The position numbers were made by a program, and so were the translations under genes. The notes beneath the pieces are model-generated. The model ran no database searches. It had not been told where the DNA came from and saw nothing but the letters and a program-made list of their open reading frames with translations. Of a DNA stretch of 64,000 nt, positions 46,032 through 46,380 are shown piece by piece. How positions within the stretch are numbered: the first letter of the stretch is position 1; the number at the start of each line of letters is the position of its first letter. Origin of the DNA: Eledone cirrhosa (taxonomy: Eukaryota); assembly GCA_964016885.1 (NCBI GenBank), contig OZ024740.1, positions 261,516,001 through 261,580,000 on the forward strand, in the 5' to 3' direction.

Positions 46032-46380
46032 TATAAAGAAAAAGAGATGAACTCGAAAATGCAACTGGAGTCTTATATTTTTTTTAAATATATATATTTA
46101 TTTGGTTCCTTTACCGGTTTCGCAGTTCTTCTGCTTTTCAAAAGGTGAGTTGAGATGGAGGGTCTGTGGTTTTGAGAAAAACCACAGACCCTCCATCTCA
46201 ACTCACCTTTTGAAAAGCAGAAGAACTGCGAAACCGGTAAAGGAACCAAATAAATATATATATTTAAAAAAAATATAAGACTCCAGTTGCATTTTCGAGT
46301 TCATCTCTTTTTCTTTATACTTTCACTCGTGTAGGACACCTCGGTTATTTTTCATTTTGTAAAAAAAACCTCACTTTCTA
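46032..46380. mobile_element. Family H: perfect fold-back (~142-bp arms, 46032-46173 / 46178-46319) with two HHRs
   Basis: Arms appear identical around the central loop; (TA)n on both sides. Confidence 0.88.
46206..46243 (+). ncRNA. Minimal HHR with U3-A8 compensatory core (mirror copy 46108-46145 on -)
   Basis: CCTT TTGAAAA GCAG AAGAA CTGC GAAACCGGTA AAGG; perfect stems I and II; palindromic ACCGGU. Confidence 0.85.

Follow-up and report, generated by a model that had tools for sequence, protein, structure and literature searches.

The perfect palindrome at positions 46,032–46,319 of the window, i.e. the whole stretch of 64,000 nucleotides of Eledone cirrhosa DNA analysed here, is, as read from its sequence, a head-to-head stub composed of two short pLTR copies of a young Penelope-like retroelement (PLE) inserted in a TA repeat. 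We consider it likely that such stubs form when both ends of the target prime reverse transcription on element RNA at two fixed internal sites, with the copies running to near the 5' end of that RNA. The window stub itself, which contains neither a TATA box nor ORFs, is most likely inert.

The palindromic insert and its parent retroelement

According to a pairing scan of the window, the two arms of the palindrome (46,032–46,173 and 46,178–46,319) are exact reverse complements over 142 of 142 pairs, separated by a centre of 4 unpaired nucleotides (46,174–46,177), in agreement with the initial annotation of a perfect palindrome of about 290 bp. That annotation also placed a hammerhead in each arm; both are present, but they sit on opposite strands, and the coordinates given missed a one-sided tail. 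Positions in the arms are counted here from the hammerhead U3 (position 0), with the natural full-length copy L058 as the reference; the left arm then covers -32 to +108 and the right arm -37 to +174, and the 3' end sites at +108 and +174 are referred to as E1 and E2, respectively. The insert is thus asymmetric, since the right arm runs on for about 65 nt, from 46,320 to around 46,385, before the TA repeat resumes. Both E1 and E2 are TATA-like, and both flanks in the window are (TA)n. The features are as follows:

45,996–46,031, no strand: left (TA)n target flank (from the sequence)
46,032–46,173, minus strand: short arm, an inverted pLTR copy from -32 to +108 that ends at E1; 95% to L058 and the exact complement of the right arm
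46,108–46,145, minus strand: mirror hammerhead, minimal type I, with a U3-A8 core (descriptor scan)
46,173–46,385, plus strand: long arm, a pLTR copy from -37 to +174 that ends at E2; 96% to L058 over 213 nt
46,174–46,177, no strand: unpaired centre, part of the right arm, whose start lies 5 nt further 5' than that of the left arm
46,206–46,243, plus strand: minimal type I hammerhead with U3-A8, predicted cleavage after 46,239 and a self-complementary ACCGGU for a dimeric stem III
46,320–46,385, plus strand: one-sided tail between E1 and E2, which in full-length copies is followed by further leader sequence and the start codon of ORF1
46,386–46,465, no strand: right (TA)n-rich target flank (from the sequence)
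11,213–11,263, minus strand: solo, partly decayed U3-A8 hammerhead-like motif of a sister family, with one broken pair in distal stem I

Read-through RNA of the palindrome is predicted to fold into a single hairpin of 142 bp (-243.7 kcal/mol), in which the ribozyme is buried. Because of this long hairpin and of the opposite-strand location of the two motifs, the palindrome cannot be a dimer, and an intramolecular hammerhead dimer built from the two arms is therefore ruled out. Neither this burial nor the tail nor the parent element had been recognised in the initial account of the palindrome. Other candidate identities were rejected as well. The only Rfam matches over the palindrome are microRNA-type hairpins far below the gathering score. 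A foldback element or a miniature inverted-repeat DNA transposon, with fixed symmetric terminal inverted repeats, does not agree with asymmetric ends, centres that differ between copies and frequent solo arms. Finally, non-LTR retrozymes are defined by head-to-tail tandem units, each with a hammerhead, and by the lack of a coding parent (bioRxiv 10.64898/2026.07.22.740005; like the other papers cited here, in the part available), whereas the window holds a head-to-head pair and a coding parent exists. Perfect arms between microsatellites might also suggest an artefact of assembly or library preparation, the more so as none of the listed short-read contigs spans this locus. However, the window arms differ in both start and end, the arrangement recurs with imperfect arms at dozens of other loci, and short-read contigs (4 runs of one study) hold similar head-to-head joints with varied arm lengths, which makes an artefact extremely unlikely.

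The parent was found through long copies, in which reverse transcriptase (RT) and GIY-YIG share one frame of 775 aa. A protein search with 39,842 candidates gave, among the 100 matches listed, identities of 94–100%, many of them with the 775-aa frame open. The unit of 4.7 kb consists of a hammerhead, a leader, ORF1, the RT-EN frame and a second hammerhead, as present in 3 of the 20 stretches examined (L058, L063 and L065), where direct hammerhead pairs about 4.7 kb apart flank the ORFs as pLTRs arranged in partial tandems. The L058 tail is continuous with the leader, and ORF1 starts about 200 nt after U3. The Pfam domains PF00078 (RT) and PF01541 (GIY-YIG) are detected in L032 and L058, with RT scores of 29.9 and 28.7 bits for a cut-off of 29.6, and the frame contains the motifs DKG and YLDD, a CX4CxxC linker at residues 645–653, and YIG. 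Judged by these motifs, the layout is that of Neptune or Nematis, in which the RT is followed by a CX2-5CxxC linker and GIY-YIG (PMC8557442); none of the 769 homologues found carries a clade name.

Instead of the canonical single ORF, the element has two frames, an ORF1 of 400 aa and the RT-EN frame in -1, with an overlap of 88 nt (L058:2492–2579). The overlap contains the heptamer U UUU UUA in 24 of 24 rows, some of which represent the same copy twice, and a sister family with an RT of 42–63% identity (L201, minus strand near 1064) has the heptamer at the same NHFLD codons. Thus, RT-EN would likely be made by programmed -1 ribosomal frameshifting from ORF1; an ORF1 separated by a frameshift is allowed for some PLE types (Craig et al. 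2021, PMC8557442, legend to Fig. 1). A 5-bp stem located 7 nt downstream of the heptamer was considered as a stimulator, but its fold is not better than that of shuffled sequences (z -0.4). ORF1 has no Pfam match, and its best Atlas score (0.85, to gag-like clusters) is below the reliable range and serves as a lead only. One further locus (L054, G000:C4:28494800-28504700) contains a composite of inverted arm and 3.4-kb copy as a tandem array with a period of 3,912 bp, its units separated by TA runs.

Several other repeats share the window with the stub. An RT fragment with YVDD on the plus strand (16,971–17,423; Pfam RT E 0.026) resembles another Penelope-like clade and is not matched by the protein of the parent element at 1e-5. 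The segment 2,823–3,711, with 309-nt arms that are 99% complementary and lie 271 nt apart, is probably another inverted-arm insertion, with a related copy at 18,597–19,141. Diverged copies of a non-LTR retrotransposon, with frames for endonuclease and RT, lie around 29,900–34,300, 37,100–39,600 and 42,200–45,700; the three are 76–82% alike and alternate in orientation, and 53,800–64,000 is occupied by about 1,100 copies of a G-rich 9-bp satellite with extreme strand skew.

Anatomy and variation of the U3-A8 hammerhead

On the plus strand, the descriptor scan defines stem I as CCUU (46,206–46,209) paired with AAGG (46,240–46,243), the core as UUGAAAA (46,210–46,216) and stem II as GCAG/CUGC (46,217–46,229), followed by GAAA, CCGG and the UA after which the cut is predicted. 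These boxes fit the minimal type I PLE hammerhead, which requires a Watson-Crick 3-8 pair, GAAA and UH, here represented by UUGAAAA, GAAA and UA. Stem II has 4 bp with a pair probability of about 0.8, and its closing pair G10.1-C11.1 is kept across families. G10.1 directly follows A9, so that the window family lacks an extra base between 9 and 10.1, which sister families do have and which is frequent in PLE hammerheads without being obligatory. Stem I is expected to have 4–5 bp; among the 58 distinct copies with the stem II of the window it has 4 bp in 21, as in the window copy, 3 bp in 25 and fewer in 11, and it is reduced to 3 bp in the other main subfamily and to 0–2 proximal pairs in most sister copies. 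Its predicted probability is about 0.7 in the isolated motif versus 0.02 in the native leader, and the isolated motif as a whole folds no better than shuffled sequences (z -0.9). The ACCGGU self-duplex is estimated at -8.3 kcal/mol, and a predicted cofold of two copies pairs ACCGGU between the molecules. The hammerhead is predicted to cut as an intermolecular dimer only and, judged by where arms start (see below), in a small share of templates. Work by Lunse et al. from 2017 reportedly deals with dimer cleavage of PLE hammerheads and may already cover U3-A8 variants.

The genome search proposed in the initial annotation was run on the 3.0-Gb genome, with the reversed pattern as a control, and returned 20,485 matches versus 47, so the motif is not due to chance. 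Its warning that standard searches miss the motif agrees with the outcome of the Rfam scan, in which no hammerhead family appears among the 150 listed of 171 matches. At the same junction, C3-G8 is found 110 times, C3-A8 208 times and U3-G8 140 times. Rows with a mismatched 3/8 pair mostly resemble single mutants, and the C3-G8 rows come largely from another family; the covariation that had been anticipated between positions 3 and 8 therefore lies between families and does not extend to the window family itself. A revertant C3-G8 subfamily was rejected, since none of the 100 listed of the 110 C3-G8 rows matches the stem II of the window family exactly. Four C3-G8 copies with related flanks (L261–L264) look like old mutated copies, and the partner arm of L262 is U3-A8.

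Several U3-A8 families vary in stem II and in N7, which is not A in 2,621 matches. At least three pairs are kept in 14 of 16 recurrent stem II strings, while shuffling gives a mean of 2.2 and never reaches 14 in 2000 shuffles, although the relatedness of these strings means that the test overstates the constraint. Sister families with RTs 41–62% identical keep U3-A8, and the core, stem II and the self-complementary junction are retained across families. The motif at 11,224–11,260, which the initial annotation regarded as the same variant, indeed has the same core (U3 at 11,256, minus strand) and a different stem II (AGCA/UGCU), but it belongs to a sister family and has only 2 proximal stem I pairs. 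That family shows a compensatory change in distal stem I in 4 of 30 copies (L161, L163, L170 and L176) and matches to the GIY-YIG region, with 44–52% identity, at 2 of 30 loci.

The compensatory swap at positions 3 and 8, which the initial annotation had recognised correctly, has precedents. Several natural U3-A8 covariant hammerheads have been reported, with activity in vitro (Perreault et al. 2011, PMC3088659); they carry the same swap, but the available text does not present them as minimal motifs of the dimer type belonging to an animal retroelement of high copy number. U3-A8 minimal hammerheads have also been described in the pLTRs of Cercyon PLEs of Schistosoma mansoni, where opposite-strand hammerhead pairs lie 100–700 bp apart and a dimer form was proposed (Cervera and De la Pena 2014, PMC4209133). 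The Eledone motif shares with Cercyon the minimal type I architecture, the replacement of C3-G8 by U3-A8, the palindromic 15.2–16.2 junction, a short, if variable, stem I, the G10.1-C11.1 pair, the location in pLTRs and the close pairs on opposite strands. Unlike in Cercyon (about 1,300 versus 2,000), U3-A8 is the dominant form in the Eledone family; moreover, stem II has 4 bp without the extra base after A9, and the youth of the family accounts for the uniformity of the motif.

A number of other hammerhead-like sequences were observed. A C3-A8 repeat without good stems recurs (L141, L142 and 19 of the 100 C3-A8 rows listed), its downstream sequence resembling window positions 11,341–11,370, and it is possibly a dead ribozyme in a successful family. 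The family that supplies most C3-G8 rows (L104–L133) has a segment between the core boxes and a stem I that misfit a simple type I fold. Six C3-A8 copies about 9.6 kb apart (G000:C1:348863669-348911674) represent a larger tandem array that carries one mutated stub. In the window, the minus strand of 12,944–12,989 contains a canonical-core candidate (CUGAUGA, a 4-bp stem II, a palindromic stem III and a 6-bp stem I), which is a better textbook fit than the flagged U3-A8 motif, and a weaker CUGAUGA motif at 20,908 (minus strand), with a 3-bp stem II and an AU-rich stem I, may be chance.

Pairing and common source of the arms

Arm pairing was mapped in the window and at 70 further loci, which were selected by the U3-A8 motif within the initial 24.7 Mb of contig 1. 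Of 34 adjacent head-to-head junctions, 26 join E1 with E2, the window copy with its inverted copy and its tail at one end being among them, and none joins E1 with E1 or E2 with E2; in the other 8, one end is truncated or split by the aligner. The arms of the 26 pairs start within 5 nt of each other in 16 cases; in the remainder, E2 arms exceed their partners in 6 pairs and E1 arms in 4. At L037, an arm spanning -219 to +108 faces one spanning +88 to +174, each holding sequence that is absent from the other, and therefore neither arm copies the other; pairs with arm-private sequence are also present at L218, L238, L251 and L024, and L032 is a long asymmetric pair of 4.5 kb versus 0.7 kb.

These observations bear on another way of generating the same insert, in which the second arm of the element arises by self-priming, i.e. 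by fold-back, with either the cDNA or an antisense strand as template, a route suggested for rotifer Penelope (PMC3846280). Self-priming predicts the near-symmetric pairs that make up 16 of the 26, and it would also account for the short palindromic centres and for rare variants common to both arms, as found in the window and at a second locus with a U3-G8 change on both arms (L265, G000:C4:262303143-262303260). One cDNA, however, cannot yield both arms of the pairs with arm-private sequence, long asymmetric pairs such as L032 speak against it, and the symmetry is explained by a common 5' end that solo arms use too. Hence, we regard self-priming as quite unlikely and favour twin priming at E1 and E2.

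With regard to their sequence, the arms of a pair come from one source and have not generally been homogenised later, which follows from agreement at a subfamily site and from the one-armed state of rare variants. The subfamily site, with a frequency of about 47%, agrees between arms in 22 of 22 true pairs (of 24 listed, 2 in L033 combine different insertions and were left out; L221 and a segment of L033 appear to be duplicates of one another). The arm difference is about 2.6% inside a pair (hand sum) versus 6.6% between loci, and 3 of the 22 pairs, the window included, show no difference in 101 columns. A very recent insertion, one of two explanations initially offered for the identical arms, is thus plausible without being exceptional. 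The other was conversion of one arm by its partner after insertion, in favour of which the two window arms share a variant that occurs on no more than 36 arms in the genome. Nevertheless, among the 29 loci read, this variant is one-armed in 11 of 11 other two-armed loci, locus-private variants are one-armed in 23 cases versus 6 on both arms, and a variant already present in the template RNA explains its occurrence on both arms equally well. Conversion is therefore not needed in general and, possible as it is at the window locus, appears improbable there.

Arm starts and the proposed insertion cycle

Arms mostly begin shortly upstream of the ribozyme: 58 of 99 start at -45 to -30 in a sample biased to intact ribozymes, and among 100 arms anchored downstream of the ribozyme 53 do so, 23 have an earlier start and 24 a later one (hand tally), the latter being spread from -3 to +61. 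A TATAAAA at -72 is located 30 nt before -42, which on sequence grounds we infer to be where transcription starts; the position might also mark an RT stop or a site of RNA processing. A search for expression listed no RNA holder of the sequence.

Among arms that start at +21 to +34, 19 of 107 begin at +30, the first base after the predicted cut (p ~2e-4, hand tally), as compared with an average of 6.8 arms, and a range of 3 to 12, at the other positions. In the youngest subfamily across the whole genome (71 rows; 4 full-length copies containing duplications were excluded), +30 is the start in 13 of 67 (p = 0.0008 versus a uniform distribution over 14 positions, hand tally). In the older subfamily (the first 100 of 824 rows, from which 35 full-length copies containing indels, starts beyond +34 and members of the young subfamily were removed), the figure is 6 of 40, with p = 0.06 when taken alone. 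The excess is modest and blurred by microhomology, with +32, +28 and +23 also above average, and it is suggestive only, as a uniform null is not truly valid; it may reflect occasional copying of cut RNA. A stronger +30 peak obtained earlier was left out of the statistics, since the gap design of that search favours late starts. In the youngest subfamily, 5' ends are also in excess at +23 (9 of 67), where the self-complementary ACCGGU begins. In any case, arms that start at the cut make up less than about 1% of the family, and uncut RNA is therefore the main template.

This raises the possibility that insertion proceeds as described with a U3-A8 motif that has lost its cleavage activity and persists in the leader either neutrally or as a binding site for protein. 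Such a motif would be in keeping with templates that are mostly uncut and arms that extend to -42, with a weak stem I, with the spread of the C3-A8 repeat despite its poor stems, and with ribozyme mutants that left insertion in vitro unaffected (PMC11167929). The excess of 5' ends at +30 argues against it, as do the reported in vitro activity of U3-A8 ribozymes (PMC3088659) and the retention of core, stem II and junction across families whose RTs are about half different, while N7 and the letters of stem II change. A non-cutting motif is accordingly unlikely, and the hammerhead is probably active without being needed for insertion.

Taken together, the following sequence of events is proposed. 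Transcription would start near -42 behind the TATA box, so that an ordinary mRNA carries the hammerhead, E1 and E2 within its first 220 nt. One target end would then prime at E1 and the other at E2 on the same RNA, giving cDNAs of about 150 and 215 nt that are copied back to the RNA 5' end, meet at their 3' ends and are joined. With priming at E1 and E2 and a common 5' end, the product would be a head-to-head palindrome that is nearly symmetric apart from the tail on one side. Failure at one target end would leave a solo arm, and read-through transcripts of tandem units would give rise to long copies. Many ends of sister copies likely record the start of the element RNA and, occasionally, its cut site.

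The closest mechanistic parallel is PAc, a Poseidon element of Anolis carolinensis, for which both target strands are cut and extended and two internal RT starts define the tail (Frangieh et al. 2024, PMC11167929); in vitro its ribozyme is dispensable, and its start sites show neither strand preference nor homology to the target. The Eledone family would resemble PAc in having two internal RT starts downstream of the hammerhead, extension of both target strands, AT-rich targets and uncut RNA as the main template. Its proposed start sites, by contrast, lie in the leader, match the target through their TATA-like sequence and are used strictly one per end, and in this respect the in vitro behaviour of the Anolis element speaks against the twin-priming reading. 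Furthermore, PAc has C3-G8 and, in the part of the paper available, no RNA-seq ends at the cut, where a small excess of Eledone insertions begins. Among EN+ PLEs, an inverted pLTR with a one-sided tail is standard (Arkhipova et al. 2013, PMC3846280; PMC8557442), and the Eledone family shares with them the partial tandems, the inverted 5'-truncated copy, the tail on one end and the (TA)n targets. It differs from them in its longer tail (about 65 versus 30–40 nt), in that most copies are stubs of 150–215 nt with a fixed 5' end, and in that ORF1 and RT occupy two frames joined at a slippery heptamer. As for promoters, that of Drosophila Penelope is internal and TATA-less (PMC2377424), and a putative TATA box has been noted in rotifer pLTRs (PMC3846280).

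U3-A8 cores in PLEs, opposite-strand pairs, inverted pLTRs and one-sided tails have thus all been published, and the finding as originally posed, a core swap within a palindrome, is ordinary. What this analysis adds is the pairing of E1 with E2, the arm starts near -42, the +30 excess and the conserved -1 heptamer, family-level footprints that are worth following up. Within the partial literature coverage, no paper was found on strict E1+E2 pairing, start-site-limited stubs, a +30 footprint or a frameshift in Neptune, nor one on PLE hammerheads of octopus, although the supplements of PMC4209133 and PMC8557442 may list this family.

Both the formation of head-to-head copies with tails in PLEs and the question of whether the weak hammerheads of these elements cleave in vivo are called open in the available text of PMC8557442 and PMC11167929. 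With its youth, about 20,000 motif copies and intact open frames, the Eledone family is a test bed for both questions, providing a simple answer to the former that can be checked and, for the latter, an initial hint from the genome. The full combination of twin priming at two TATA-like sites on one capped RNA, U3-A8 cutting in vivo and a Neptune-type -1 frameshift is put forward tentatively, as a possibility to which we give slightly less than even chances. If it is true, the thousands of stubs would be fossils that document the in vivo copying cycle of Penelope, and the minority of insertions that begin exactly at the cut would be a trace of hammerhead cleavage in vivo.
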